Shown: positions 5,376 through 35,543, numbered from the stretch's first letter. The stretch: 35,543 bases of DNA from Bacteroidota bacterium (GCA_013334735.1 JAAXXA010000002.1:1-35543), one strand, 5' to 3'. Notes: a model not told the origin generated them from the sequence alone. Translations and numbers: made by a program.

Positions 5376-5501
5376 ATGACAAATTTAGATATGGCATTAC
5401 TGATAGACAGGTATAGAAGAGAGATATGTAGATTATGTAATGTATTGAAGTTAGAAATAATATTTGAGAATGATGGGGTAATATGGAGAATAAGATATTA
5501 A
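5376..5501 (+). CDS. Possible 41-aa ORF overlapping the terS start
   Basis: AGGGGT lies upstream of the ATG at 5376. The translation is MTNLDMALLIDRYRREICRLCNVLKLEIIFENDGVIWRIRY. Support is weak. Confidence 0.25.
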   Translation: MTNLDMALLIDRYRREICRLCNVLKLEIIFENDGVIWRIRY

Positions 5502-6106
5502 AGAAAAAGTATATAGTAGATAATTTGTATAAGTATTTAACAGTTAAGCAGCAGAGATTATTTGATTTATATTATTTGTTTAACAGGGATACATTAAAGG
5601 CTGCAAGGATGTATATAAAAGAGACGGGTGGGAAAGAAGGAAGGAACGGAGAGATAGCGATAAAGTCACATTACAGGAATTATCCAATATTAAGATTAGC
5701 GATAGAAGTTAATGATTGTAATATAAGTGATTTATCTGAGGAAGAGCCAATAGAAAGTCCAACTCTTGAGTGGACATTAGTGGAGACGATGAAACTGTAT
5801 AAGCATACTGAGAAAGAGTTTTTTAAATATGAAGAGAAAGTGAGTGAATGGAAAGAAGAGTATGGTACTATTGAACAATTAATAGAGATGAGGGATAAAT
5901 ATAAGAAGGAGATGAAAGAGTTGCTAAAGCAGATTACTGACTTTCAGAATAAGTTTGGTGAGATGCTTAATGATGATAGTTTAAAAATTGGTATGTTAAG
6001 TGACTCTGATTTAATGACAGAACTAAAAAAGTATACGAATGAGGCACAGGAATATTTAGCTAAAGAAAAGTGGTATAATAGGAATAAAATAAAAGAAGTG
6101 GCTTAG
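5483..6106 (+). CDS. terS: Putative terminase small subunit
   Basis: It lies immediately upstream of terL. The N-terminal LTVKQQRLFDLYYLF...KAARMY resembles the HTH start of small terminases (LTxKQxxF...). Confidence 0.55.
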   Translation: MENKILKKKYIVDNLYKYLTVKQQRLFDLYYLFNRDTLKAARMYIKETGGKEGRNGEIAIKSHYRNYPILRLAIEVNDCNISDLSEEEPIESPTLEWTLVETMKLYKHTEKEFFKYEEKVSEWKEEYGTIEQLIEMRDKYKKEMKELLKQITDFQNKFGEMLNDDSLKIGMLSDSDLMTELKKYTNEAQEYLAKEKWYNRNKIKEVA

Positions 6107-7723
6107 ATGGAAGTAAACAATGATTTAATTAACAAAAGTAATCAATATAAATTTGTTTATTTAAAGAGACTGATTATAGAACTAAGGGCAAGACAGAAAG
6201 AATTTTACTATAGTTATGAACCGCCTTCTGAGAAACATTATTTACTTCATTCGTGCGGCAAGAAGATATTGATACTCAAAGGGGCACCACGTACAGCAAA
6301 AACGACATCTGTGCTTATGGATGCCGCTATGATTATGAAAGATGAGCATCCATTTATTACTAAGTATAAGAACATACCGGACTTAAAAAAAAGGTGTTGG
6401 GTGATTGCTACTAACTTTAAGAAAGTGCAAGAAGTATTACTGCCAATGTTTCTGAATGTTATTCCTAAAGTGAATATTAAAAATGTATGGAATGATCCTA
6501 GAAATAATAAATATGTCATTGAGTTAAATACTGGGTGGCATATTTTATTTAAGTCTCAGGAAGAAAAGATCGGCACTATTACCTCAGCTGACGCTTCAAT
6601 AATCATTATGGATGAACGTGTTGATAGTGAAGACTGGAGAGAGCAAATACGAAGCCGTGTTATTTCTACGGATGGTATGCTTTACTTCACTATGGATAGT
6701 AACGAAGAAGATGAATGGGTACACGGGCTTAAGCAGTTGTCTTACTCTCAATTGTTTCACTTTGAGTTAAAAGATAATGCTAAGAATCTTCCTAAGGAAG
6801 AACTGGATAGGCTTGAAAATGAATTGGATGATATAGCTAAAGAAAAGTTGCTTTATGGTAACTACGCTAATAGAGATATCGTTTATATTTTTAAACCTGA
6901 TATCTGGAACGAATCAAACTATGTTGAGATTCAACCTAAAAGATTTAGCATAGCTTACGGAGAGTTAACGCCTGATGAAGAAGGCTATATCAGAATGTTT
7001 AAAGATGTTCAGTCAAATGTAAAGTATGTAGTGGGATTTGACCCTTGCGGTGGGGGTGGAAGAAATAGCCATGGGTTGCATGTGTTCGATGAGTTTGGAG
7101 AACAATGTCTCATGATGATCGATAGTAAAATATCTTATGTCAACGCTCCAGAATTATTTATTATGCCTATTTTGAACTATTACAATAAAGCTTTATTTGT
7201 TAGTGAAAACAGAGAGCATGGAAGATATGTGGTAAATAAAATGAATGATCTTGGATATTATAATTTATATTCGGATCAGATGTGGAAGCCAATGGAAAGC
7301 TCAAAGGGCGTACTAAAAACTCAGATTGAGTTTGGAATTATTACTACAGAAAAAAGTAAAAAGGATATGAAGAATAAGACACTGGATGATATTGTAAATG
7401 GGAAAATATTACTCCACGATAGACTGACTAAAATGCAGTTAGAACATTTTGTGGAAGATTATAAAGACAGGGATAGCCAGAAGCTTGAACCTAAAATGCA
7501 CGGTATTAAAATTATGGGAGAACCGGATTTAAAAAACAGTGATGATGATTTGGTTATGTCTTTATTTTTTACTGATAGGGCCTTAAATCATCTTGGTTAT
7601 TTAAACAATGTGATAAGACAAAACAGGTCTAAAAAACCAATGATGAAAACTATAGATGACTTATTGAACATAAAAGTAATACGTCAGGGTGGCGGTGGGT
7701 TTTATCAAAGTTTAGGATATTAG
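6107..7723 (+). CDS. terL: Terminase large subunit
   Basis: It has a Walker A-like LKGAPRTAKT, a Walker B IIIMDE, and a C-terminal nuclease-like region (VVGFDPCGGGG). Size and position are typical. Confidence 0.9.
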   Translation: MEVNNDLINKSNQYKFVYLKRLIIELRARQKEFYYSYEPPSEKHYLLHSCGKKILILKGAPRTAKTTSVLMDAAMIMKDEHPFITKYKNIPDLKKRCWVIATNFKKVQEVLLPMFLNVIPKVNIKNVWNDPRNNKYVIELNTGWHILFKSQEEKIGTITSADASIIIMDERVDSEDWREQIRSRVISTDGMLYFTMDSNEEDEWVHGLKQLSYSQLFHFELKDNAKNLPKEELDRLENELDDIAKEKLLYGNYANRDIVYIFKPDIWNESNYVEIQPKRFSIAYGELTPDEEGYIRMFKDVQSNVKYVVGFDPCGGGGRNSHGLHVFDEFGEQCLMMIDSKISYVNAPELFIMPILNYYNKALFVSENREHGRYVVNKMNDLGYYNLYSDQMWKPMESSKGVLKTQIEFGIITTEKSKKDMKNKTLDDIVNGKILLHDRLTKMQLEHFVEDYKDRDSQKLEPKMHGIKIMGEPDLKNSDDDLVMSLFFTDRALNHLGYLNNVIRQNRSKKPMMKTIDDLLNIKVIRQGGGGFYQSLGY

Positions 7724-8044: not shown

Positions 8045-10048
8045 ATGGATTTATCCAAAGTAGTTATCACTAAACGTGATATTACTAATATCAAAAATCT
8101 TGAGTATATTGAAAATCTTAATTTTAAGACACTAGATCAATTTAGAGCTGAGGCTGAAAAACATTATACTGATATTTCTAAAGACTTTCAGTATATTAAA
8201 GAGTTTGTTATCGAAAATAAACAGTGGAATTTTTTCGATGATAAAGTTAAAACTAAAATGTATAACTACGCTGGGCAAGAACTCTATGATTTTTATAAGA
8301 CTTATAATAAAGAACAAGATTTAAAAAAGCCAAAACGTTCTATCAATATTACTAAGACATATCTTGAAACCCTTGTTGCTTCTTTTGCCGAAATAGACCC
8401 TCTGCCTATGGCAATAAGTAAATATGACTATAATATTAAAGATGAAACAAATGATAAGATCAATATATTACTAAATAGCATTTTTAATGAAGAAAATAAT
8501 TTTGATGAGCTTTATGAAGAAGCTTTGTTTAAATCATTTTGTTATCAATATTGTTTTATTCAGCCCGTTATTGATATTGACAAATCAGAAACACGCACTC
8601 CTATCAAACTAAGAATTATTGACCCTGAAGATGTGCGAATCGACCCAATGGCTAAAGATTTGAATGAATGCGACTATCTTTATCAGAAAGTAAAAATGAG
8701 ATATTGGCAAATTAAAGAATTGTGGAACTATGAAGAAGAAATAAAAAAAGATGATGAACCTAAAGATAACGAGATGTGTGATTTAATACACTGGTGGTTT
8801 AGAGGGAAAAACCCTGACGGTAAAACACAGTGGTATTTATTTACTGAGTATGATAAAAAATGGTTAAAGCCTATCGATAAAAAAGGAAAGTTTTATCCTG
8901 AAATGATTGTGTTTGATCATCTTCCTCTCGTTAAATTCTGTCCTGAAAAATATAAAGACGAAACGTCCAGCGATTCTCTGGCTCTTGAAATTATTCCTAT
9001 CAACATTCAGTATAACATTAATCTTAGTGAAGAAGACTATAACATGCTGAGATGGTATAACAGGCCGAAAAAAGTGATTGGTTCTATCCCAGTTGATATG
9101 GCTAATAATGCTAATATTCCTAATGGAGTTATGTCAATAGGGCCAGGTTCTGATGTTGTTCCCTATCAAGTCGATATTCTTCCAACCGCTGAACTTGAAC
9201 AAAGAAAACAATTCCTAAACCAAGAAGTAAAACAAGCTACCGGTATAGACTTTGAACTTCTGGCAGGAGGAAAACCTAAAGGTACGTATTCAAATAATCT
9301 ATTACAAACAATGCAGAGTAAAGCAGATAATAAAACTGATATGATGCAAAAGCATATTTTTTCCGCCATAGAAGAACTGGCATATAAAGCATTGTATCTA
9401 CAATATAGATACATGGATGGAAAAAGCATAGTTATTTTTGATGGCAAAATACAAGATAGCATTGTTATTCATCCGGATGATATTTTAAATATTAAATATA
9501 AAATTGAGATTGATACTAAAGATACCAATCTTATGACACGTGAAACTAAGTTTCAAACTCTCACTCAATTTATGCAGTACAGTCAGGGTAATCCTCTCAT
9601 ACTTTATCCAATGGCTCAAGTATTACAAAATGGCATGCCTCACTTTTTCCCTGATAAAGTGATGGACGCTTTTGGGATTATGTTTGGAAAAGCTATAGAT
9701 CAATTAAGTGCTACTCAACTTCCTCCTAATGGGATTGCATCTTCACAACCAGCTCCTTTTAACCAGACTTTGGCTGCTGGAATGTCTAACCAGCTTCCAG
9801 TAGCTGGAGCTGGTAGTGAAATGCCAGAAGAAGATAATACGGACGGAGTTTCAAATGAACAGCTTTTGAATGAATGGAAAAACGCTGAAGATCAATTGAA
9901 AGAAGCTGGATATAGCGAAGATCAGATAAATGAGTTTTATGACGCTCTTGTAGCGGAGAAAATAGCGGATGGTACTCCAAGAGGAGAAATTATTATGAAT
10001 TTAGAAGAAGCAGTAAATAAGTCTGTAAATAATATGAAGAAAAAATAA
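8045..10048 (+). CDS. Putative portal protein (667 aa)
   Basis: Size and position fit: after terL and before the scaffold and capsid genes. AAGGAG RBS. No motif-level confirmation is possible by eye. Confidence 0.65.
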   Translation: MDLSKVVITKRDITNIKNLEYIENLNFKTLDQFRAEAEKHYTDISKDFQYIKEFVIENKQWNFFDDKVKTKMYNYAGQELYDFYKTYNKEQDLKKPKRSINITKTYLETLVASFAEIDPLPMAISKYDYNIKDETNDKINILLNSIFNEENNFDELYEEALFKSFCYQYCFIQPVIDIDKSETRTPIKLRIIDPEDVRIDPMAKDLNECDYLYQKVKMRYWQIKELWNYEEEIKKDDEPKDNEMCDLIHWWFRGKNPDGKTQWYLFTEYDKKWLKPIDKKGKFYPEMIVFDHLPLVKFCPEKYKDETSSDSLALEIIPINIQYNINLSEEDYNMLRWYNRPKKVIGSIPVDMANNANIPNGVMSIGPGSDVVPYQVDILPTAELEQRKQFLNQEVKQATGIDFELLAGGKPKGTYSNNLLQTMQSKADNKTDMMQKHIFSAIEELAYKALYLQYRYMDGKSIVIFDGKIQDSIVIHPDDILNIKYKIEIDTKDTNLMTRETKFQTLTQFMQYSQGNPLILYPMAQVLQNGMPHFFPDKVMDAFGIMFGKAIDQLSATQLPPNGIASSQPAPFNQTLAAGMSNQLPVAGAGSEMPEEDNTDGVSNEQLLNEWKNAEDQLKEAGYSEDQINEFYDALVAEKIADGTPRGEIIMNLEEAVNKSVNNMKKK

Positions 10049-10060
10049 AAGGAGATAAAC

Positions 10061-10729
10061 ATGGATGAATTAAGGAATGACATTTTGGATTATGCTGGAA
10101 TAGATGATACTACAAGCGAAACGCTGGAGCAATCTCAGTACACTAAAGCGGATGAGAATAGAGAAAGAGAAAGGGCCGCTCAGGCTCTTATGCAGGAAAG
10201 ATATAAAGTTAGTTCTAATAATGATTCTATAACAAAAGAAATGCAGGATATGAAAAATCTTGTTATGAAAATAGCTAAAGAAAAAGAAGATTTAAAAAAT
10301 GAGATCAGTCAGTTGAAAGGACATGTTACTACTGTTAGTGAAGAAAATAATCAAAGAGCACTGAAAGAAATTATGGATATCATTGAGAAAGAAAAGAGCG
10401 GTATTAAAGCGGATGAGGTTTTATCTCAGTATTATAACGAACAAGATATAATTCAAAATTTACAAAAAAATTCAGCTATTGGAAAAGTGCTTACTCCTAA
10501 GGAGCAACTCGCTATTTTAAATTTTGAAAATGTTGCTAAGGAAAACGCAGAGCTAAAACAAAAGCTTGAAAACAGAGGCTTAATGTTACATAGGCCTATT
10601 GGTAAAATAAGTTCATCCAGCGTAATCCCTAATGATGACGATGTCGATGTACGCAGTCTTTCATATGAGGATTATAAGGCTTTACAGAAAAAGAGACAGA
10701 TGAAAGCAATGGAAAGCATGCTTGGATGA
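10061..10729 (+). CDS. Putative scaffolding protein
   Basis: It lies between the portal and capsid genes. The protein is charged with coiled-coil-like composition. Confidence 0.55.
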   Translation: MDELRNDILDYAGIDDTTSETLEQSQYTKADENRERERAAQALMQERYKVSSNNDSITKEMQDMKNLVMKIAKEKEDLKNEISQLKGHVTTVSEENNQRALKEIMDIIEKEKSGIKADEVLSQYYNEQDIIQNLQKNSAIGKVLTPKEQLAILNFENVAKENAELKQKLENRGLMLHRPIGKISSSSVIPNDDDVDVRSLSYEDYKALQKKRQMKAMESMLG

Positions 10730-11985: not shown

Positions 11986-13005
11986 ATGAGTCAAAGATTT
12001 GATATTCCTCAGTTGAGGAAAGTATACGCTAATATACCGGACTCCCAAAACCAGTCGTCTTGGCTTCAGGATGAATTTTCTATTGAAGGCAAAACTTATG
12101 TATTCTGTAAATTTGCCGCAGGCCAATATATTCGTCAGGGAGATTCTCTTTATGTCAATGCTAATGGTGAAGCTGTTATTGGTAAAAATGCGACGTTCAT
12201 TGGTAATGCTGTCGCTGAATGGGACATTGACGCTACATTAGCCGCTCAGTATAGCTTAGTTATTAGAGCTGGAAGTAGTGTTTATGTATCTGTTGCTCCT
12301 GATTCTGTTACCTGTGTTAGCGCAGCTTATGAAGGTGCTTTTGCCGTAAACTATATGAATGCTTCTGTGCGTGTCGCTAATGCTTCTTTTACTTTGCCAG
12401 TTACGTATGCTTCAACAAACACAGCTACATCTAACATTATTTTGACAAGAGCTACAGACGCAAATGCCTCTATATTGGTTAATGCTGGCGATGTTGTAAA
12501 CACAAACGTTGGCATTTTTGGAGTCATAGCACAAGTAATTAATAGTTCTTCTATTGCTTTAGGAACTGCCGCTCAGGGTACAGCAAACGGGGCTTCTGTT
12601 CTTTGTATTGTTACATCTCCTTTGTCTACTATCCAAAAAAGTGGTATGGTAGTAACTTGCGCTAACGCTATTTGGAGAATGACTGTTGGTGGTACTACTG
12701 GATATCCATACAATACTCCTGCTCCTGGTAATGTGAATTCTGCTCTTAGCTGGAACCAGGTTAACGTTTGTACTGCTGGAACTATAATGTTTGTTAACTC
12801 TTGTGTTGCTGGACAAATGGTTAGAACAGGCGATATTCTTACTCTTGCTGGTGATACTGGTTATTCTAGCAGATCAGTCGCAAGTATTCAGAATGCTTAC
12901 GCATTTACTGTTAACGCCGCAGCTACCGCAGAAACCAGTTATGCTCTTGGATATGGAGTAAATGTAAATTCCAAGTTTATTTTAGCTCAAATTAATCCTA
13001 TGTAA
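11986..13005 (+). CDS. Ala/Ser/Thr/Val/Asn/Gly-rich virion-associated protein (339 aa); decoration or fibre candidate
   Basis: GGGAGG RBS. Composition is strikingly unlike the Lys/Glu/Ile-rich neighbours, with almost no Lys or Glu after about residue 70. A strong terminator follows directly. Confidence 0.8.
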   Translation: MSQRFDIPQLRKVYANIPDSQNQSSWLQDEFSIEGKTYVFCKFAAGQYIRQGDSLYVNANGEAVIGKNATFIGNAVAEWDIDATLAAQYSLVIRAGSSVYVSVAPDSVTCVSAAYEGAFAVNYMNASVRVANASFTLPVTYASTNTATSNIILTRATDANASILVNAGDVVNTNVGIFGVIAQVINSSSIALGTAAQGTANGASVLCIVTSPLSTIQKSGMVVTCANAIWRMTVGGTTGYPYNTPAPGNVNSALSWNQVNVCTAGTIMFVNSCVAGQMVRTGDILTLAGDTGYSSRSVASIQNAYAFTVNAAATAETSYALGYGVNVNSKFILAQINPM

Positions 13006-13010
13006 GTATT

Positions 13011-13040
13011 GAGAGAGGGCACGCCCTCTCTCTTGTTTTT
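13011..13040 (+). terminator. Rho-independent terminator
   Basis: GAGAGAGGGC-ac-GCCCTCTCTC (10-bp stem) is followed by TTGTTTTT. Confidence 0.85.
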
Positions 13041-13063
13041 ATAATTTATAAAAGGAGCTGTAA

Positions 13064-13906
13064 ATGGAAAAAACAAATGTTAGTCCGGTAGTTAATATAG
13101 TACCGGAACAACCTAAAAAACTGATGATAGGTATGCCGTGTTATAACTGTAGTATGCATATTGACGCTACAAAAACATTGATTGAAACGATGGGAGCTGG
13201 TGTAAGTTATAACTGGGTTAGTATTGGCAATGAAAGCTTGATAAGCAGGGCGAGGAATAATATTTTATCGCTGTTTTATCATCAGAAAGATTTTACTCAT
13301 TTGTTGTTCTTAGACGCTGATATTTATATGAATGGACAAGATGTAAAAAAATTATTGGAATCCGGAAAAGATGTTATTGGTGCGGCTGTAAGACTGAAGG
13401 CAAAAAACACTATTTATAATTTTACTTTTGATCAGCCTATCCCAAACTGCGAACCGCCTAAAGAAGACGGAGAAAGATATTATAAAGTGACAAAGTTGGG
13501 AACTGCCGCTTTAATGCTAAGTAGAAAGGCAGTAGAAGCTGTTATTGATAACGCTAAGAAGAAACATGAAAATATTATTAAGCTTTGTTTAAAATTGAAA
13601 GATGTAATGGGAAAAGACTGGCCTAAAGAATATGAAGACATTTTAAATAAAAAAGATGTGCTTAGTCTTTTGAATATCATTGATGGCATTGGGTATATAT
13701 ACGGAAGATCAAGCATATTGATGGGAGGAGACCTAGCTGATAATATGCCTAAAGAATATTATGATATCTGCAAAGTTGGTGTTAAAAATGAGCTTTATTT
13801 AAGTGAGGACTATTACCTTTGCAGCGATCTGAAAGAACTTGGTTTTGATATTTATGTAGATAGAACTATTAGAACAAGACATAACGGTACGGTGGAATTT
13901 GAATAG
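13064..13906 (+). CDS. Putative GT-A fold glycosyltransferase
   Basis: The pattern IGMPCYN...SLISRARNNILSLF...THLLFLDADIYM matches the GT2-like layout with a DxD (DAD) motif. Confidence 0.55.
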   Translation: MEKTNVSPVVNIVPEQPKKLMIGMPCYNCSMHIDATKTLIETMGAGVSYNWVSIGNESLISRARNNILSLFYHQKDFTHLLFLDADIYMNGQDVKKLLESGKDVIGAAVRLKAKNTIYNFTFDQPIPNCEPPKEDGERYYKVTKLGTAALMLSRKAVEAVIDNAKKKHENIIKLCLKLKDVMGKDWPKEYEDILNKKDVLSLLNIIDGIGYIYGRSSILMGGDLADNMPKEYYDICKVGVKNELYLSEDYYLCSDLKELGFDIYVDRTIRTRHNGTVEFE

Positions 13907-14059
13907 ATGAAATACATAGATAAGATAATAGTAATAAAAAATAAAGTTGTTAATTTTATTACTAAGTATACTGAATTAAAAGAATTGCATTTAATAAGAA
14001 TTGATAGATATATTGAAGAAAACAAGATGATAGATAAATATATTTATAGAGAGGTATGA
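13907..14059 (+). CDS. Possible 50-aa ORF between the two glycosyltransferase genes
   Basis: The ATG comes directly after the upstream stop, and there is an ATGA overlap with the next start. No motif. Confidence 0.35.
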   Translation: MKYIDKIIVIKNKVVNFITKYTELKELHLIRIDRYIEENKMIDKYIYREV

Positions 14060-15009
14060 TTATAAAAGGAATTGCAATATTTAACTATTACAGCAATTTT
14101 AATGTTGGCGATAAAATTTTTAATCCTGATAGTTATTTAATAGGAGAAAATCTTGGCTATCCTATTATTTGTTTAAAAAATATATTGAATAAAAAAGGAA
14201 TTGAAATACATACTGCTGACTATTTTAACAGGTTTGAAGATATTGACGCAATGATTTATCTGGATCATTTAACTGGATTTGAAAATAGTTTAAAAAGCAT
14301 TAGAAAGGATTATCCTCACATAAAACACTATTTATTAATTATGGAAAATGAGATAATCAAACCAGATAATTATGACAAAAATAACCACAATTTGTATGAC
14401 AAATGTTTCACGTGGAACGATTATTTTGTTGACGGAGAAAGAATTATAAAGTATTGCATAGGTAATAAACTGCAAAATATTATGTTAAGTACGTTTGAAG
14501 AAAAAGAGAAACTCGCTTGTATGATTTGCGGTAATAAAATGGTGAATCATCCTAAAGAACTCTATAGCGAACGGCTTAAAGCTATAGAATTTTTTGAGAA
14601 TAATTATCCAGAAGATTTTGATTTATATGGGTTTGGATGGGATAAGGATAAACATAAATGCTATAAAGGAATGGTCAAGACTAAAACAGATATATACTCA
14701 AAATATAAGTTTGCTTTTTGTTATGAGAACGCTAAAGAAATAGAAGGATATGTTACTGAAAAAATATGGGATGTTCTTATGAGCGGAACTATACCTATTT
14801 ACTATAAAACAAAAGAACTACCAGATTCAATTTATGTTGATATCTGCAAGTTTGATAATTATCAAGAACTGTATAACTATATGAAAAATATGACCAAGAA
14901 TGATTATGAGTTATTCATTAACAATATAAAAGACTATTTAAACAGTGAGGAAGTAAAACGATATTCAGGGGAATATTTTGCCAAAACTATAATAGATAAT
15001 ATCATTTAA
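14056..15009 (+). CDS. GT10-family (alpha-1,3/4-fucosyltransferase-like) glycosyltransferase
   Basis: YKFAFCYENAKEIEGYVTEKIWDVLMSGTIPIYY matches the GT10 signature as I recall it from Helicobacter FucT (FNLCFENTQGYGYVTEKIIDAYFSHTIPIYWG). Confidence 0.75.
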   Translation: MIIKGIAIFNYYSNFNVGDKIFNPDSYLIGENLGYPIICLKNILNKKGIEIHTADYFNRFEDIDAMIYLDHLTGFENSLKSIRKDYPHIKHYLLIMENEIIKPDNYDKNNHNLYDKCFTWNDYFVDGERIIKYCIGNKLQNIMLSTFEEKEKLACMICGNKMVNHPKELYSERLKAIEFFENNYPEDFDLYGFGWDKDKHKCYKGMVKTKTDIYSKYKFAFCYENAKEIEGYVTEKIWDVLMSGTIPIYYKTKELPDSIYVDICKFDNYQELYNYMKNMTKNDYELFINNIKDYLNSEEVKRYSGEYFAKTIIDNII

Positions 15010-29801: not shown

Positions 29802-30319
29802 GCGGTAGCTCGATTAATTTCCGGTGTACTAACGGAGATCGTTATGATAGCTCTGCTGTATTGCTGGATGATAGAGGGTTTGAGATATTTTCCTCTCAAT
29901 ATGTCAATACCGATTCCACAAACAGCTACAAGGGTGGTCGCCTTTCCTGCGGGTGTTACTATGGGATAGTTGGATATAGGACCTCCGGTCAAAGAGTGAT
30001 AAAACTATTTTCTAGCAAAGCAGATATTACTAAGATCAAAACAGATAGAGACATTCCAGATTCAATGTTTGCTCTTTCATCAGATATACCTAATTCTAAC
30101 CATGACAATGCATATTATATTGAGTATGTTCAAATTCATTCAGGGGGCACAAGCTGGGATTATAGTCATGGATGTGTTTCTGTTTTAAACTATGGATTAA
30201 ATCCTAACGGAAAAAAATATGAAGAATTTGATAGATTGATGTCTTTTCTAAAAGACAATGAAATCATAATCATCAAACTTTCTCTCGACGAAGGAGTCAA
30301 AACTTTTACGCAGCAATAA
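29777..30319 (+). CDS. Candidate endolysin with an SHGC (YkuD/L,D-transpeptidase-like) motif (180 aa from MKILEV)
   Basis: AAGGAG RBS at the internal Met. IHSGGTSWDYSHGCVSV resembles the His...SHGC catalytic signature, though the His-to-Cys spacing is shorter than in the canonical motif. It is the last gene of the lysis region. Confidence 0.4.
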   Translation: MKILEVKRGGSSINFRCTNGDRYDSSAVLLDDRGFEIFSSQYVNTDSTNSYKGGRLSCGCYYGIVGYRTSGQRVIKLFSSKADITKIKTDRDIPDSMFALSSDIPNSNHDNAYYIEYVQIHSGGTSWDYSHGCVSVLNYGLNPNGKKYEEFDRLMSFLKDNEIIIIKLSLDEGVKTFTQQ

Positions 30320-30935
30320 GTTTGCTAATATATTCTACTCCCTTTGCATTTACTAAAGTCTGTGGTTTGTTAAATACATTTCCAGACATCTCTATAGGTT
30401 TTTCAATTACCTTAAAATATCCTTTATCCATTTCTTTCTGATAAGGTGTATTATTTCCCATCAATATATTTTTATTTCTCAATTTAGAAAATAAAGTATT
30501 TCTACCAATTCCTAAAATGTGTGCTACTTCGTTCATTGATTGCCAACTTTCAGAAGATAAAAACTTGTCGTAAGTCAATACTTTTGGTTTCATTGTTTCG
30601 ATTTGTTCTGCTTGATCGGCAGCAAGTCTAAGAGCTTCTGCGAATGTTTGCGGTAATGTAGGTTTATTTTTGTTTTCAAGTTCAATCCAACGGTCAATAA
30701 TTTTTGTTCTCAATTCTACAGAATAACCAGATATTAAAATCATTATTTCACGATGGGGCAATCTATAACATTTTCTTTCTTCTCTATTAGCTCCCATGTA
30801 AACCGCCTCAAATTTGAGGTGGTCATCTAATTGTGTTTCAATATCACGAATTACATTGTCGTGTCTTTTATTTGTTAGTTCGGCAATCTCTCTGCTATCC
30901 ATCCATAATTCCTGCTTGATAATCAAATCATTCAT
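30306..30935 (-). CDS. Rha-family regulatory protein with a KilAC/antirepressor C-terminal domain
   Basis: The N-terminus SREIAELTNKRHDNVIRDIE is typical of Phage_pRha. The C-terminus (WQSMNEVAHILGIGRNTLFSKLR) is typical of KilAC/Ant domains. Confidence 0.8.
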   Translation of the reverse strand: MNDLIIKQELWMDSREIAELTNKRHDNVIRDIETQLDDHLKFEAVYMGANREERKCYRLPHREIMILISGYSVELRTKIIDRWIELENKNKPTLPQTFAEALRLAADQAEQIETMKPKVLTYDKFLSSESWQSMNEVAHILGIGRNTLFSKLRNKNILMGNNTPYQKEMDKGYFKVIEKPIEMSGNVFNKPQTLVNAKGVEYISKLIAA

Positions 30936-31057: not shown

Positions 31058-31086
31058 ATTATACACCAATTTTTATCGTTTGTCAA
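31058..31086 (-). promoter_or_regulatory. Consensus sigma70 promoter (TTGACA-17-TATAAT) pointing left
   Basis: The -35 is at 31086..31081 (overlapping the stop of the upstream gene) and the -10 at 31063..31058. Confidence 0.6.
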
Positions 31087-31598
31087 GGTAAAGGTATTTC
31101 TTGAGTTATCAATATTCTTGCTTTTCTTTCACATTCCTGTGCATTCTCTTCTTCTAAATCATGCTCTTCATCATGAGTTAAATGATAGCATTCATGCATA
31201 ATTGTAACAGCTATATTATCATAACTTACATCTTCTATATAGTTTTTCATAAAGTAACTATCATCCATATTAAATACAAAATAAATAGTATTTTTTCTAG
31301 AATCATCAATATGAGAATCATTAACATAAGCTATAGCTCTCTTGCATATTCCAACTGGATAATAATCAATCTCTATTCTATTTACTTTTGCTAGTCTCAA
31401 TATTTTAATCATGTTTAAATAATTCAGTTTTTCTAACGCAATATAAATCTTAGTAGCAAACTTCTTGGGCGCAGTTACTTTCACACCATAAATCTTAAAC
31501 GTCACTTCTGTATATGGCGCAACCTGATCGTAAGCAGCCGAATGAACAAAAGAAAAAATAAAGAAGATCAATAAAACAACTAAAATAAATCGTTTCAT
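31083..31598 (-). CDS. Secreted HExxH protein (putative zinc metalloprotease), 171 aa
   Basis: It has an N-terminal signal-like MKRFILVVLLIFFIFSFVHSAAY, the HExxH motif in IMHECYHLTHDEEHD, and an AGGAGG RBS. Confidence 0.6.
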   Translation of the reverse strand: MKRFILVVLLIFFIFSFVHSAAYDQVAPYTEVTFKIYGVKVTAPKKFATKIYIALEKLNYLNMIKILRLAKVNRIEIDYYPVGICKRAIAYVNDSHIDDSRKNTIYFVFNMDDSYFMKNYIEDVSYDNIAVTIMHECYHLTHDEEHDLEEENAQECERKARILITQEIPLP

Positions 31599-31692: not shown

Positions 31693-31890
31693 TTATATTT
31701 TTGTTTGCCTGATTGTTATTTCTATTTTTGTATTGTTTAATACGCAGTGTAACTCACTATAAGAAAAATTTTTCGCAATTATTTCTTTATCTATTTCAGA
31801 TACAAACAATGTTCCGTCTTCTTCTATTTTATCAATATTAAATAATTCGCTAAATGTGGCAAGCCATGTTTTTCCGCTAACAAATTCCAT
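31693..31890 (-). CDS. Hypothetical 65-aa protein
   Basis: GGAGG RBS. It overlaps the end of the SDR gene. Confidence 0.6.
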   Translation of the reverse strand: MEFVSGKTWLATFSELFNIDKIEEDGTLFVSEIDKEIIAKNFSYSELHCVLNNTKIEITIRQTKI

Positions 31891-32656
31891 TTAGTTTCCT
31901 CCATTCTTTGTATTCATAAATTATATTTCGCATTTCATACGCATTATCTACATTATCGTCCTTAAATTTGTTTATAATACCAAAATAATCTAATAAATGA
32001 TGTAACTTTATTGGCCCAACGTTATTTTTTAAATCAAAATAAGTATTTAATTGTGTTTCTAATATTTCATAACTTATTAAAAAATGTCTTATTATATCAT
32101 ATAGTATACGTGGAGTAATGTAATATAACTTTTTATTCTCTCTAGTCGTGATATTAAACTCATCCCCATCTTTAATATGTTTCAATATATTGCTCATTAA
32201 GAATCCACTATCTAAATTTATCCATCTGCTAAAATAGGCTGGTATTCTGAGATCAATAATATTTAATTCCGGCAATAATCTGTGTTTCATTTCTAAGTAT
32301 TGTTTATTAATTTTATAATGATGCTGCCTATCTCCATATCGTATGTCTTTAGTTACAATCCAGCTACTCATATTGATATAAATAGGTTTTGTTTTATGTT
32401 TTAAATAATCAATAATTATATTGTCAATATAATTATAATCCCATAAATCCTGATAATCGATCGTTGATATTTTAGAAGCGGTTCCTTTCCCGACGCAATT
32501 GATTATTATATTAGGGTTTATTTTGTATAAATAATATTGCCATTCACTATCTCTGCATGATAAAGTGCTTAATTGAATATCTTTATCCTGTTCAAAATAG
32601 TATATCAAACCTTTAGCAATATGGCTAGTGCTACCTAATATCAATACTTTTTTCAT
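31877..32656 (-). CDS. SDR-like NAD(P)-dependent sugar reductase or epimerase (259 aa)
   Basis: It has a Rossmann-like N-terminus KKVLILGSTSHIAKG and a YxxxK (YKINK). The sugar-operon context supports the call. Confidence 0.5.
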   Translation of the reverse strand: MKKVLILGSTSHIAKGLIYYFEQDKDIQLSTLSCRDSEWQYYLYKINPNIIINCVGKGTASKISTIDYQDLWDYNYIDNIIIDYLKHKTKPIYINMSSWIVTKDIRYGDRQHHYKINKQYLEMKHRLLPELNIIDLRIPAYFSRWINLDSGFLMSNILKHIKDGDEFNITTRENKKLYYITPRILYDIIRHFLISYEILETQLNTYFDLKNNVGPIKLHHLLDYFGIINKFKDDNVDNAYEMRNIIYEYKEWRKLNGIC

Positions 32657-32657
32657 G

Positions 32658-32981
32658 TTAATCTTTGCTTGTTTCTATAACTTTGTTAATACCATATTCT
32701 ATTATATTATATCCGGTGCGATATATTTTTCCGTGTTCACTATTTTTATAAAATTTTTCATCTGGTAATTTATCTATAGTTGCCTTTTTCCATTTTTCAT
32801 ATTCTTCCCAATCACAAGATAAATAAGTTGTTCCATCAGATCGGGTTAGTATTCTATTTCCACTAGAAATAGCTTTTTTTTTCAAATAATTAACAATTGC
32901 TTTTAAAGCGTTTTCTTTTGTGTCAGACATAACATGATAAGATAATCCATAATCATTGTATTCAAAAGAATATAATTTCAT
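32658..32981 (-). CDS. Hypothetical 107-aa protein in the sugar operon
   Basis: ATGA overlap with the rfbH-like stop. No motif. Confidence 0.7.
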   Translation of the reverse strand: MKLYSFEYNDYGLSYHVMSDTKENALKAIVNYLKKKAISSGNRILTRSDGTTYLSCDWEEYEKWKKATIDKLPDEKFYKNSEHGKIYRTGYNIIEYGINKVIETSKD

Positions 32982-34174
32982 ACAAAATACTCCTCAATAG
33001 TTTTTACAATATAGTCTATTTCCTTCTTTCCAATGCCTGGATGGCAGCCTATCCACAATGTATTTTCAGATACATAATCAGCTATTGGATAATCCTGTTT
33101 ATCGCTATAAGAAAGATAGGCTGGATGCTTAGTAAAGTTACCAGCAAATAGAGGGCGTGTAGCTATTCCTTTTGATTCTAAATAATCAACAAATTGTTTT
33201 CTTCTGTTTTTATTAGAGAGTGTCATGGGGAATCCAAACCATGAAGGAATAGAATCTTTTTCAAATCCATGGAGTTTTAAATCTTTTATGTGTTTTAATT
33301 TCCCAAACAATGTAGAGTTATTCAATACTCTTTTTACTACAAACTTATCTAATCTTTTAAATTGAGCCACACCAATAGAAGCGCATAATTCAGGCATTTT
33401 TAGATTGTATCCAATATGTTCTACCACTGACTTGTGATCATAGCCAAAAGGAAGCTTTCCATATTTCTGAGAGAATCTTTTTCCGCAAAGATTATCTTTA
33501 TTTGGAGGACAAACACAAGCCCTTCCCCAGTTACAATAAGACTGGATAATATTATATAACTCAGTATCATTAGTACAGACCGCCCCTCCCTCGCCTGTAG
33601 TAATGTGATGAGCTGGATAAAAACTTAGTGTTGATATGTGTCCGAATGAACCTGTCTTTTTTTCTTTATACACACTTCCTAAAGCGTCGCAGTTGTCTTC
33701 AATCAACCATAGCTTATGCTTCTTGCAGATAGCCATAATCTTTGTCATGTTGCACGGATTCCCAAGTGTATGCACTATGAATATTGCCTTAGTCTTTTTA
33801 GTTATTTTAGATTCTATTTGATTCTCGTCAATATTAAGTGTATCCAATTTGATATCTACAAACACAGGCACTAGGTTGTTTTGTAATATTGGGTTTAAAG
33901 TAGTAGGAAATCCGCATATAGAAGTAATAACTTCATCTCCAGCTTTAATATGGTTCTTGAGATTTGGAGAAGTTAATGCTGTCATTGCTAACAAGTTAGC
34001 TGAAGACCCTGAATTACAAAGAGCAGTATGTTTTACTCCAAGATATTCTGATAATAGTTTAGGAAGTATTCTTGTGTTTTTCCCTGCCGCATAATCGCCT
34101 TTAAATACTGCTTTAATAAGCGTCCATATTTCTGGAAGTCCTGTGATAGCTTTTCCTGTTGTAATTCGTTTCAT
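32978..34174 (-). CDS. rfbH: RfbH/DdhC (E1)-type PMP-dependent CDP-4-keto-6-deoxyglucose 3-dehydratase
   Basis: Several blocks match Salmonella RfbH as I recall it: SGSSANLLAMTALTSP, GDEVITSICGFPTTLNP, SFYPAHHITTGEGGAV (His in place of the PLP Lys), NWGRACVCPPNKDNLCGKRF (Fe-S Cys cluster), GYDHK, PSWFGFPMTL. Confidence 0.9.
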   Translation of the reverse strand: MKRITTGKAITGLPEIWTLIKAVFKGDYAAGKNTRILPKLLSEYLGVKHTALCNSGSSANLLAMTALTSPNLKNHIKAGDEVITSICGFPTTLNPILQNNLVPVFVDIKLDTLNIDENQIESKITKKTKAIFIVHTLGNPCNMTKIMAICKKHKLWLIEDNCDALGSVYKEKKTGSFGHISTLSFYPAHHITTGEGGAVCTNDTELYNIIQSYCNWGRACVCPPNKDNLCGKRFSQKYGKLPFGYDHKSVVEHIGYNLKMPELCASIGVAQFKRLDKFVVKRVLNNSTLFGKLKHIKDLKLHGFEKDSIPSWFGFPMTLSNKNRRKQFVDYLESKGIATRPLFAGNFTKHPAYLSYSDKQDYPIADYVSENTLWIGCHPGIGKKEIDYIVKTIEEYFV

Positions 34175-34177
34175 TAG

Positions 34178-34891
34178 TTACTCCTTATAATTATCAATAT
34201 AACTTTTTAGTTTTGACACTTCTAAATCTCTCAGTCCTTGTGTGCCTTGATAAACAGCTTGATCGTAAGCGAACCAATTATTCATCTCATCTATAATCAA
34301 TTGATCAGGTTCTACTTTCATAAGCACAGGGCTGGAATGTTCAACCTCTATTTCTTTCAAGTATTCAGTTTTTCCAAGCTTTGAAAATACATAGTATATC
34401 CAGTTGTCAGAGAAGTAATGCTTTAACATATGACACGAATAATTTCTTGTTACCTGCAAGTAATTTTTATGAACTATATAATGACGAGGCAATGTTTCAC
34501 TTCCGGCTCCATCATTAATCCACCTACAAAATATTTTATCTTTTGTGTCTGACTTGAATTTATCTATAATAATCTTATCCCAATCTTTTGTTTTAAATTC
34601 AAGATCATTTGACACAGCAAATAACAATTCATTGTTTGCCATCTGCCCTAAGTAATTAAACTTATCATTGAGATGGTACGGACGTTTAAATTGGTGTAAT
34701 TGATAATCCAATTCTAAATCATTGACGTCTAACTTTTGAAAGAATTCATACAACTGGTCTTCTTCATCTACGTCATAGCCAAACACTATTTCAATATTTT
34801 CTGGATCGTTAACAGTATCAATAATAGATTGCAAACACTTTTTTAGTTTCTCAAGTCGTCCTCTTGTAGCTAGCAATAATGATATCTTCAT
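34178..34891 (-). CDS. Putative GT-A/GT2-like glycosyltransferase (start moved to MKISLLL)
   Basis: AAGGAGG lies upstream of the ATG at 34891. The N-terminus MKISLLLATRGRLEKLKKCLQSIIDT...IEIVFGYDVDEED fits the GT2-like layout. Confidence 0.45.
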   Translation of the reverse strand: MKISLLLATRGRLEKLKKCLQSIIDTVNDPENIEIVFGYDVDEEDQLYEFFQKLDVNDLELDYQLHQFKRPYHLNDKFNYLGQMANNELLFAVSNDLEFKTKDWDKIIIDKFKSDTKDKIFCRWINDGAGSETLPRHYIVHKNYLQVTRNYSCHMLKHYFSDNWIYYVFSKLGKTEYLKEIEVEHSSPVLMKVEPDQLIIDEMNNWFAYDQAVYQGTQGLRDLEVSKLKSYIDNYKE

Positions 34892-34901
34892 GTTTCCTCC
34901 T

Positions 34902-35486
34902 TTATAAACTTGGCAATAATACTTGGTTAGGATCACACATTACTTCGCATATACATGGATTTTTACTATTAATTATTTCATCCAAGCGTTTATCAATTAA
35001 TCCTATATCATCAATTAAATCCCATCGAATGTCATAAGCTTCTGAAAGTGATAATAAATAAGGAAATTTAAAATCAGTTCCATTCCTTGCGCCATTAAAA
35101 AACTTATTGCTTGTGTTTTTTATAGTGAGATACCCGCCATTATTAATCACAAATAGTTTAACATTGAGATTATAATTTCTTATAGTAATCAATTCCTGTA
35201 TGTTAAATTGAAAACTTCCATCACCTGTTAATCCTATCACTGGCCTGTTATCAGCAACAGCCGCTCCCACACAAGCAGGCAATGTAAATCCCATCTCTGC
35301 CTGACTGCTTGTGATATATCTCATTCCTTCTTTAAGCTTTAATGCTTGAGGACAAGCAAAAAATACTGAGCCAGCGTCTGCTATAACTACTGCGTTATCT
35401 GGAAGATGGTCTGATAGCTTTTCTAAAAAATAATAAAGATTAATATTATTATCTGAATTAATTAAATGAGATTGAATTTCCATCAT
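34902..35486 (-). CDS. Thiamine-diphosphate-binding (PP) domain protein, acetolactate-synthase/YerE-like C-terminal module only
   Basis: GLTGDGSFQFNIQELITIRNYNLNVKLFVINNGGY is the ThDP-binding GDG...NN motif. At 194 aa it is only the C-terminal third of a full-length enzyme. Confidence 0.85.
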   Translation of the reverse strand: MMEIQSHLINSDNNINLYYFLEKLSDHLPDNAVVIADAGSVFFACPQALKLKEGMRYITSSQAEMGFTLPACVGAAVADNRPVIGLTGDGSFQFNIQELITIRNYNLNVKLFVINNGGYLTIKNTSNKFFNGARNGTDFKFPYLLSLSEAYDIRWDLIDDIGLIDKRLDEIINSKNPCICEVMCDPNQVLLPSL

Positions 35487-35543
35487 TTTATATTCCGCCC
35501 TATAAACTTTACATTTTTTAATCCATTAATTCTTCAAATGAAT

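Follow-up and report, generated by a model that had tools for sequence, protein, structure and literature searches.

The stretch of DNA considered here, called the window below, is a 35,543-nucleotide contig filed under Bacteroidota bacterium (GCA_013334735.1 JAAXXA010000002.1:1-35543); it is a phage contig with a GC content of about 33%. At positions 11986-15009, between a putative major capsid gene and the gene for a head-to-tail adaptor, it carries the gene for a 339-residue protein that we call p339, an intrinsic terminator, and the genes for two glycosyltransferases (GTs), the first of the GT-A type with a DxD motif and the second of family GT10 (Table 1). The original prediction, made from the sequence of the window, was that the two GTs of the head module glycosylate the virion, p339 being a candidate acceptor, and the reading frames that it gave for p339, the two GTs and the adaptor were all exact. 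We consider virion glycosylation, with p339 as the prime acceptor, to be the best explanation of the locus, although it is unproven and our confidence in it is evenly balanced. It is favoured because the GT cassette forms part of the late operon and has no terminator downstream, because the enzymes are soluble, and because the arrangement is conserved across the whole phage lineage. The prediction gains from the conserved order of p339, terminator and GT-A, from a largely monophyletic set of GT-A genes and from a link to the right-arm sugar operon; the arguments first made for it from sequons, from donor supply and from the position of GT genes in mycobacteriophages did not survive.

Contigs related to the window were gathered via homologues of p339, GT-A, the capsid protein and the terminase, giving 11 distinct genomes (the window, L001, L002, L003/L004, L005, L006, L007/L008, L015 (=L020), L016, L017/L018 and L019) in which the identity of the capsid protein to that of the window falls from 87% to 26%. 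All 11 have the order capsid, p339, GC hairpin, GT-A. GT-A is the first gene after p339 in every genome and is the only gene to be an invariant partner of p339 in this way. GT10 follows GT-A in eight of the genomes, while two contigs end too early and L017 has no GT10. Across the deepest divergences the GT-A proteins are 34-44% identical and the GT10 proteins 35-44%, against 26-35% for the capsid, portal and adaptor proteins. In a neighbour-joining tree (calculated with no bootstrap) the GT-A genes of the lineage form one clade apart from the bacterial and other phage members, with a fusion gene in L017 outside it, which suggests that GT-A was inherited vertically together with the rest of the head module.

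The content of the cassette varies beyond GT-A, as expected for glycan diversification. A third GT gene follows GT10 in L007/L008; the cassette of L016 (13136-15391) includes an FkbM-family methyltransferase and a 537-residue fusion of a GT2 with a GT10; and in L017 a Methyltransf_24 domain is fused to GT-A (8998-10350) in a cassette that lacks GT10. Other genes lie between the GTs and the adaptor in L015, L016 and L017. Outside the cassette, the closest relative of the window, L001 (78% identity in p339), has an FkbM-type methyltransferase gene (PF05050, 1131-1823) just upstream of the large terminase gene. This gene is absent in the window and is another sign of mobile glycan-tailoring genes within the lineage.

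A strong terminator had been predicted to close the capsid and p339 unit, and it is confirmed as a 9-bp stem with six GC pairs followed by a run of T. A GC hairpin is seen 3' of p339 at the equivalent site in all of the relatives (listed by name for L001, L002, L003, L005, L006, L007, L015, L016 and L017), although the stem sequences are unrelated. At the other end of the cassette, the adaptor start codon lies 12 nt past the GT10 stop codon with no terminator in between, and the GT-A stop and GT10 start codons overlap in L002 and L019 and are 3 nt apart in L007. We therefore regard the cassette as belonging to the late operon and not as an autonomous moron. A moron, in the sense of a promoter-gene-terminator insertion, is rejected on two further grounds, in that the terminator is upstream of the cassette rather than downstream and in that the cassette is present in all 11 genomes of the lineage rather than sporadically. 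In the window, a 50-codon open reading frame (ORF) separates the GT genes, its start abutting the GT-A stop and its end overlapping the GT10 start. Small ORFs at this site in L001 and L005 have no sequence similarity to it and it is missing in L002, L007 and L019, so to judge by sequence it is not conserved and probably spurious.

It had been supposed that tail genes resume right after GT10, but the next gene encodes a head-to-tail adaptor rather than a tail protein proper: its homologues in L015, L016 and L017 match SU10_adaptor (PF24175) at 1.1e-5, 4e-4 and 0.04, just below the gathering score. The Ser/Thr-rich insert predicted in this protein is present, in the form of an A/S/T/V-rich middle region that is S/T/N-rich by composition.

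The assignment of the pair to the GT-A/DxD and GT10 types proved correct. The GT10 protein reaches 47.1 bits (E 2.8e-12) with PF00852 (Glyco_transf_10), for which the cutoff is 23.9, and matches the Helicobacter pylori alpha1,3-fucosyltransferase (FucT, PDB 2nzw) at 9e-9 over the donor-binding motif YKFxxCxEN...YVTEK. The conserved motif is carried by residues 215-237 (SKYKFAFCYENAKEIEGYVTEKI), aligned to residues 222-304 of 2nzw. All 156 homologues found have PF00852, and they are spread over unrelated bacterial and archaeal phyla. The donor is presumably GDP-fucose from the host; genes for GDP-fucose synthesis are absent from the window.

The GT-A protein alone has no match in Pfam, NCBIfam or PDB, and is recognized through phrog_1574 (1.9e-17) and through its family, which comprises 1615 matches of mostly about 217 residues. 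In an alignment of 26 members, D84 and D86 (within 'LLFLDAD' / 'FLDAD'), E248, D249 and H273 are invariant. The family profile matches A197 of Sulfolobus turreted icosahedral virus (STIV) with an E-value of 0.0044, and individual members match Anp1 (11 of 26), GT21 (10 of 26), GT8 (6 of 26) and also GT2 in Pfam, mostly below the gathering score. Thus "GT-A/DxD type" seems a fair description of the 280-residue protein. In the window, L001, L002 and L005, residues ~165-215 of the protein form a helical-looking insertion of about 60 residues (KKHENIIKLCLKLKDVMGKDWPKEYEDILNKKDVLSLLNIIDG) that is missing from the ~217-residue core family, and that could be an acceptor-recognition element.

None of the GTs or sugar enzymes of the window has a transmembrane segment (the KD19 maxima are 0.42-0.99 in the three GTs and do not exceed 1.38 in the sugar enzymes) or a signal peptide, and p339 likewise has neither. 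Wzx, Wzy, ligase and Gtr-type membrane proteins are all absent from the window.

The composition of p339 had been called unlike that of the other proteins, and so it is: A, S, T, V, N and G together make up 59.3% of its residues, compared with 18-49% in the 28 other ORFs of the window, and K and E together 3.5%, compared with 7-38%. It is not specially rich in Ser and Thr, as had also been suggested, since S+T at 18.3% is not above the other structural proteins. p339 belongs to an orphan family (7 matches in a set of 5.8 billion proteins, 17 representatives in one of 1.84 billion), and nothing significant was found in Pfam, in PHROGs, in the PDB with phmmer, or in profile searches with 7- and 20-sequence alignments. 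An AlphaFold2 model based on the 20-sequence alignment is all-beta, with a modest pLDDT of 68 (38.6 from 7 sequences) and a pTM of 0.64, and spreads the S and T residues across its predicted strands. Foldseek matches of high probability are repeatedly phage head decoration, cement or fibre-base proteins, all sub-threshold. They include HFTV1 (8qsy), the phi29 gp8.5 base (6qyy), TW1 gp56 (5wk1_K), P21 SHP (1td3) and Sf11 (9ocb), with E-values of 0.013-0.13, probabilities of 0.6-0.95 and TM scores of 0.4-0.5 on target length only. Against BFVD, the model found uncharacterised phage structural and fibre proteins alone, with low TM scores.

Change in p339 has outpaced that in the capsid protein in near and mid-range relatives, five of which show identities of 78 vs 87%, 67 vs 85%, 65 vs 79%, 40 vs 58% and 32 vs 57%; the capsid candidate is the best-conserved structural gene among near relatives (85-88% identity). 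Given the capsid-adjacent gene, the conserved terminator, which implies strong expression along with the capsid protein, the fast divergence and the decoration-class matches, p339 is most likely an abundant, decoration-like protein of the head surface. Like the known decoration and cement proteins with beta-tulip or beta-barrel folds (lambda gpD/P21 SHP, TW1 gp56, the phi29 gp8.5 base, HFTV1), it is encoded beside the capsid gene and is all-beta, with recurring 'G-D-x-[IV]' strand motifs. It differs from them in being two to three times longer, in matching their folds only below threshold and in belonging to none of their sequence families.

Two local features of p339 may be recorded here. Residues ~234-256 (window 12685-12750) form a Gly/Thr/Pro/Asn-rich loop, GGTTGYPYNTPAPGNVNSALS, confined to the closer homologues and lying in the lowest-confidence part of the model (pLDDT 41-49); one might speculate that it is a candidate O-glycosylation loop. 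Residues ~215-285 of the adaptor faintly resemble p339 residues 257-320, a similarity that is not significant (hhalign E 0.0047, probability 7%). The segment concerned, 'x-G-D-x-[IV]...S-I-x-N..AFT.NAA', is C-terminal in p339 and has three weak internal copies there. With hhalign E-values of 0.004-0.03 and probabilities below 10%, we claim neither a domain shared by p339 and the adaptor nor a threefold repeat in p339.

A second set of sugar genes lies in the right arm of the window, in a minus-strand operon (31877-35543) that encodes an RfbH-type dehydrase, a thiamine pyrophosphate (TPP)-binding domain, a GT2-like enzyme and a possible Rossmann-type reductase. The operon runs past the end of the window, and another ORF ends just upstream of the TPP gene, at the window edge. 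The RfbH assignment comes from NF011936 (510 bits against a cutoff of 423) and PF01041 (2e-90). The TPP domain matches PF02775 at 1.7e-26, and NCBIfam acetolactate synthase models align to it by their C-terminal third only. The 259-residue protein has no family match in Pfam or NCBIfam, and is a possible sugar reductase or epimerase on account of an N-terminal nucleotide-binding-like motif, KVLILGSTSHIAKG, seen by eye. The GT2-like protein, a weak match to PF00535, is homologous to the third cassette GT of L007/L008 at E 1e-32, and the GT2-GT10 fusion protein of L016 matches it at E 8e-32 with its N-terminal half. Since its homologue is fused to GT10 in one relative and adjacent to GT10 in another, the right-arm operon and the head cassette appear to be parts of one system. 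The original prediction had the operon supplying GT10. The connection between operon and cassette is thus borne out, but the supply of the GT10 donor is not, as the operon has a step toward a CDP-3,6-dideoxyhexose and no GDP-fucose pathway. The operon may instead provide a dideoxy or branched sugar to another transferase. The pairing of RfbH with a TPP enzyme is the logic of branched 3,6-dideoxyhexose synthesis of the yersiniose type (YerE), which would be unusual for a phage.

Virion glycosylation might then proceed as follows. The capsid protein and p339 would be transcribed at a high level up to the conserved terminator, and read-through of the terminator would yield lower amounts of GT-A and GT10 as soluble cytoplasmic enzymes, to which the right-arm operon of the window phage would add the GT2-like enzyme and nucleotide-sugar-modifying enzymes. 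GT-A would start the glycan by adding a sugar to an exposed residue on one of the virion proteins, p339 being the likeliest; GT10, presumably with host GDP-fucose, the GT2-like enzyme and the methyltransferases of the relatives would then extend and vary the glycan, and the outcome would be a capsid with a glycan coat. A more specific version of this scheme would make p339 a dedicated "glycan carrier" with GT-A as its cognate initiating enzyme, the two having been co-inherited since the origin of the lineage, while swappable GT10, GT2-like and methyltransferase genes and a 3,6-dideoxy- or branched-sugar pathway produce a lineage-variable heteroglycan coat on the capsid. We put this version forward tentatively, and think it somewhat more apt to be wrong than right.

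A number of observations weigh against glycosylation of the virion or of p339 in particular. Five N-x-S/T sequons had been counted in p339; the actual number is six, against 5.2 expected from composition (p=0.43, shuffle test). The D-A-N-A-S site, which had been noted as fitting the extended bacterial sequon, is retained in two of seven close homologues, and the wider p339 family conserves no sequon and has no Ser or Thr that is conserved throughout. The sequon hypothesis is rejected on this chance-level count and lack of conservation. The placement of p339 on the virion is argued from gene position, the terminator and sub-threshold fold matches, and Foldseek with the p339 model gave no PDB match at E <= 0.001. 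The 404-residue capsid candidate has no sequence match in Pfam, PHROG or PDB. Neither p339 (C-terminus '...FILAQINPM') nor the capsid protein ('...TELDAMYMY') ends in a low-complexity S/T-rich tail. Elsewhere in the GT-A family, distant homologues in phages Cr30 and ctz7E20 lie within replication/recombination modules, and a bacterial member, in L011, shares a polysaccharide GT cluster with a GT10. Characterised bacterial GT10 enzymes use glycan acceptors such as lipopolysaccharide (LPS), and RfbH-type 3,6-dideoxyhexoses are classic O-antigen sugars. Finally, the Rha/KilAC antirepressor gene of the window hints at a temperate lifestyle, or else at interference with a resident prophage.

PglB-type N-linked glycosylation of p339 at D/E-x-N-x-S/T sites was considered separately and rejected, as it is a periplasmic process and p339 has no signal peptide, while the enzymes are cytoplasmic. 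No oligosaccharyltransferase gene is present in the window.

Several of these points would be accommodated if the GTs and the operon acted on the host surface, on undecaprenyl-linked precursors of O-antigen, capsule or teichoic acid. The resulting change of receptor or serotype could bring superinfection exclusion, less loss of progeny on cell debris, or lysogenic conversion. The Lewis-type LPS epitopes built by characterised bacterial GT10 enzymes (recall the match to 2nzw), the multi-GT polysaccharide cluster around the GT-A gene of L011, the place of RfbH in the 3,6-dideoxyhexose O-antigen pathway, and the antirepressor, which is compatible with a temperate phage, all agree with such a role. 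Nevertheless, we think it unlikely. The cassette is inside the late structural operon, with its terminator upstream, none downstream and a tight coupling to the adaptor gene, and the late lytic expression that this implies is a poor fit for surface remodelling. Its position has been kept in 11 of 11 genomes over deep divergence, unlike that of sporadic conversion morons. The window encodes no membrane GT, flippase, polymerase or Gtr-type protein, neither an integrase nor a repressor was identified within it, and no prophage relatives were found in 185,579 GTDB species-representative genomes.

The gtrABC modules of seroconverting phages likewise combine phage-borne GTs with sugar genes. Gtr systems consist of membrane proteins (the GtrA flippase, GtrB and a serotype-specific integral-membrane GT), are located by the integrase gene and att site, and are expressed in the lysogen, whereas the enzymes of the window are all soluble and GT-A and GT10 are encoded in the late head operon. 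We rejected a lysogenic-conversion module of the Gtr type, as there is no transmembrane segment in any GT or sugar enzyme and no integrase in the window.

It is also conceivable that another phage protein is modified (the adaptor, a 1541-residue fibre-like protein or some other tail component) and that p339 is a mere neighbour. In most genomes the cassette is as close to the adaptor gene as to p339, the middle region of the adaptor and the 1541-residue protein are also S/T/N-rich, the adaptor insert shares the weak motif resemblance with the C-terminus of p339 described above, and mycobacteriophages modify their tail tube in addition to their capsid. In L015, L016 and L017, however, the GTs are separated from the adaptor gene, while GT-A always comes first after p339, and we hold a different acceptor to be improbable.

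Hypermodification of DNA, with the GTs glycosylating modified bases such as hydroxymethylated pyrimidines for restriction evasion, has very little likelihood, for although the distant GT-A members in Cr30 and ctz7E20 sit among replication and recombination genes, and in L009 a thymidylate-synthase-family gene precedes the GT-A family member by ~3 kb and a dNMP kinase gene lies ~6.6 kb further downstream, the lineage has its cassette in the head module and not the replication module, the invariant partner of GT-A is p339, a protein-coding gene of the head unit, neither the 35.5-kb window nor the flanks sequenced in L019 and L021 encode a hydroxymethylase, a thymidylate synthase homologue or a dNMP kinase, and we know of no role in DNA modification for GT10 enzymes or RfbH-type sugars. 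What can be said for it more generally is that phages are well known to have GTs that decorate DNA with a variety of glycans (Pyle et al. 2024, as cited in PMC12619734).

Virion glycosylation, the explanation we prefer, may be compared with the mycobacteriophages Che8, Corndog and Myrna, for which it has been reported (Freeman et al. 2023, as described in PMC12363180, PMC11600133 and PMC11256854). According to PMC12363180, mycobacteriophage GTs modify the capsid and the tail tube. In cluster F1 the GT genes are close to the 3' end of the genome, and in cluster O they follow an O-methyltransferase gene; in neither case are they neighbours of the capsid genes, contrary to the original prediction. 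The mycobacteriophages resemble the window phage in encoding soluble GTs, which for virion proteins are proposed or shown modifiers, sometimes with an O-methyltransferase, in multi-GT cassettes of variable content. Their glycans have been shown experimentally on the C-termini of capsid and tail-tube proteins, whereas the system of the window is known from its genes alone. Their GT genes are outside the head module and encode other enzymes, whereas the window has an A197/Anp1-like GT-A and a GT10 inside it; their acceptor sites are C-terminal, whereas here a protein apart from the capsid subunit, decoration-like and lacking an S/T-rich tail, is the candidate acceptor; and their hosts are actinobacteria, whereas the host of the window phage is presumably low in GC and not an actinobacterium.

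Each of the two enzymes also has a known counterpart. A197 is an essential GT-A enzyme of STIV, whose capsid protein B345 is glycosylated (PMC10551542). A197 (PDB 2c0n), a minimal viral enzyme of the GT-A/DxD type, is the protein of solved structure that the GT-A family profile matches best; it is a suspected capsid glycosylator with an unproven acceptor. The similarity is marginal, covering ~80 residues around the DxD motif, and STIV is an archaeal virus of the PRD1 type. In the GT10 family, the human protein O-fucosyltransferases FUT10 and FUT11 act directly on folded protein domains (PMC11949838). The window GT10 shares the GDP-fucose-binding motif (YxFxxCxEN...YVTEK) with H. pylori FucT and is above the PF00852 threshold, but its N-terminal acceptor domain is not recognizably similar, and the C-terminal heptad repeats and membrane anchor of FucT are both absent from it.

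To our knowledge, the mycobacteriophages are the only phages shown to encode glycosylation of their virions, and its effect there is to blunt recognition by antibodies. If the glycan-carrier version of virion glycosylation given above is real, it would be the first capsid glycosylation system outside the actinobacteriophages, and its GT10 would be the first to act in the bacterial cytoplasm on a glycan linked to a viral protein. A second, unrelated system would make glycan coats a recurrent phage strategy rather than an actinophage oddity, set apart from that of the mycobacteriophages in that its enzymes differ, its carrier is a protein of its own, its genes are built into the head operon and it has visibly diversified between relatives. 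GT-A and p339 would offer a compact enzyme-acceptor pair for engineering glycosylated capsids, and one could ask what selects the diversity of phage-head glycans, whether the glycans help the phage to adhere to mucus or particles, shield it from proteases or grazers, or let it escape capture by the host.

Whatever the function of the cassette, the comparison defines a new lineage of uncultured phages. No relatives were found among 50,697 GenBank phage records by megablast or tblastn, and in IMG/VR only three contigs of the lineage, of 44-49 kb (L019, L020 and L021), were reached through the terminase, while a search with the capsid protein yielded nothing. Samples in which the lineage occurs include ERR14964778 and SRR26786816. 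It is a previously undescribed, uncultured lineage of tailed phages with ~45-kb genomes and an SU10-like portal and adaptor. The L017-type genome, at ~45.3 kb (45,341 bp for the contig of L017/L018), has identical length and differing start points in several samples and is probably circular and complete.

Table 1. Features of the window, with positions counted from its first nucleotide (aa, amino acids; PLP, pyridoxal phosphate)
Feature	Position	Strand	Assignment or remark
Possible small terminase	5483-6106	+	Late module
Large terminase	6107-7723	+	phrog_2 match
Portal	8045-10048	+	P22/SU10 portal (Pfam)
Scaffold-like coiled-coil protein, 222 aa	10061-10729	+	
Putative major capsid protein, 404 aa	10753-11967	+	By position only (after portal and scaffold-like protein)
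p339, 339 aa	11986-13005	+	Uncharged, all-beta, A/S/T/V/N/G-rich; candidate head-surface protein and candidate glycan acceptor
Intrinsic terminator/attenuator	13011-13040	+	3' limit of capsid and p339 unit
GT-A-type DxD glycosyltransferase, 280 aa	13064-13906	+	A197/Anp1-like family, phrog_1574
Spacer ORF, 50 aa, in GT-A/GT10 gap	13907-14059	+	Probably non-functional
GT10-family glycosyltransferase, 317 aa	14056-15009	+	PF00852, alpha1,3/4-fucosyltransferase type
Head-to-tail adaptor, 381 aa	15022-16167	+	SU10-like N-terminal domain, A/S/T/V-rich middle region
Rha/KilAC antirepressor	30306-30935	-	
171-aa protein	31083-31598	-	Signal-like hydrophobic N-terminus, HECYH (HExxH-type) motif
Possible Rossmann-type sugar reductase/epimerase, 259 aa	31877-32656	-	Motif seen by eye
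RfbH-type PLP enzyme (CDP-6-deoxy-D-xylo-4-hexulose 3-dehydrase)	32978-34174	-	NF011936, PF01041
GT2-like third glycosyltransferase	34178-34936	-	Weak PF00535 and homology to cassette GTs of relatives
Stand-alone TPP-binding C-terminal domain (acetolactate-synthase-like)	34902-35486	-	PF02775

Downstream of the adaptor gene, the plus strand encodes very large structural proteins and lysis genes. In the right arm, the 171-residue HECYH protein is encoded between the antirepressor and the sugar operon, and may be a secreted, metalloprotease-like moron product. Genes for a DnaB helicase, a single-stranded DNA-binding protein (SSB) and a PAPS-reductase-domain protein are found upstream of the terminase gene in L021 (80-3414), which has a genome of the L017 type; the lineage thus has replication genes of its own that are absent from the 35.5-kb window. 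L019, a member of the lineage from IMG/VR, encodes a 261-residue ankyrin-repeat protein on the minus strand (173-958; Ank_2, 5e-76), a kind of protein that is unusual in phages. At its left end (1-110), the window opens with ~18 tandem copies of the hexamer CGACCN (accacgaccacgaccccgacctcgacc...), which in the minus-strand frames would read as (Gly-Arg)n, Ser-x or Val-rich repeats; this could be a terminal repeat, a low-complexity coding tail running off the contig, or an assembly artefact.

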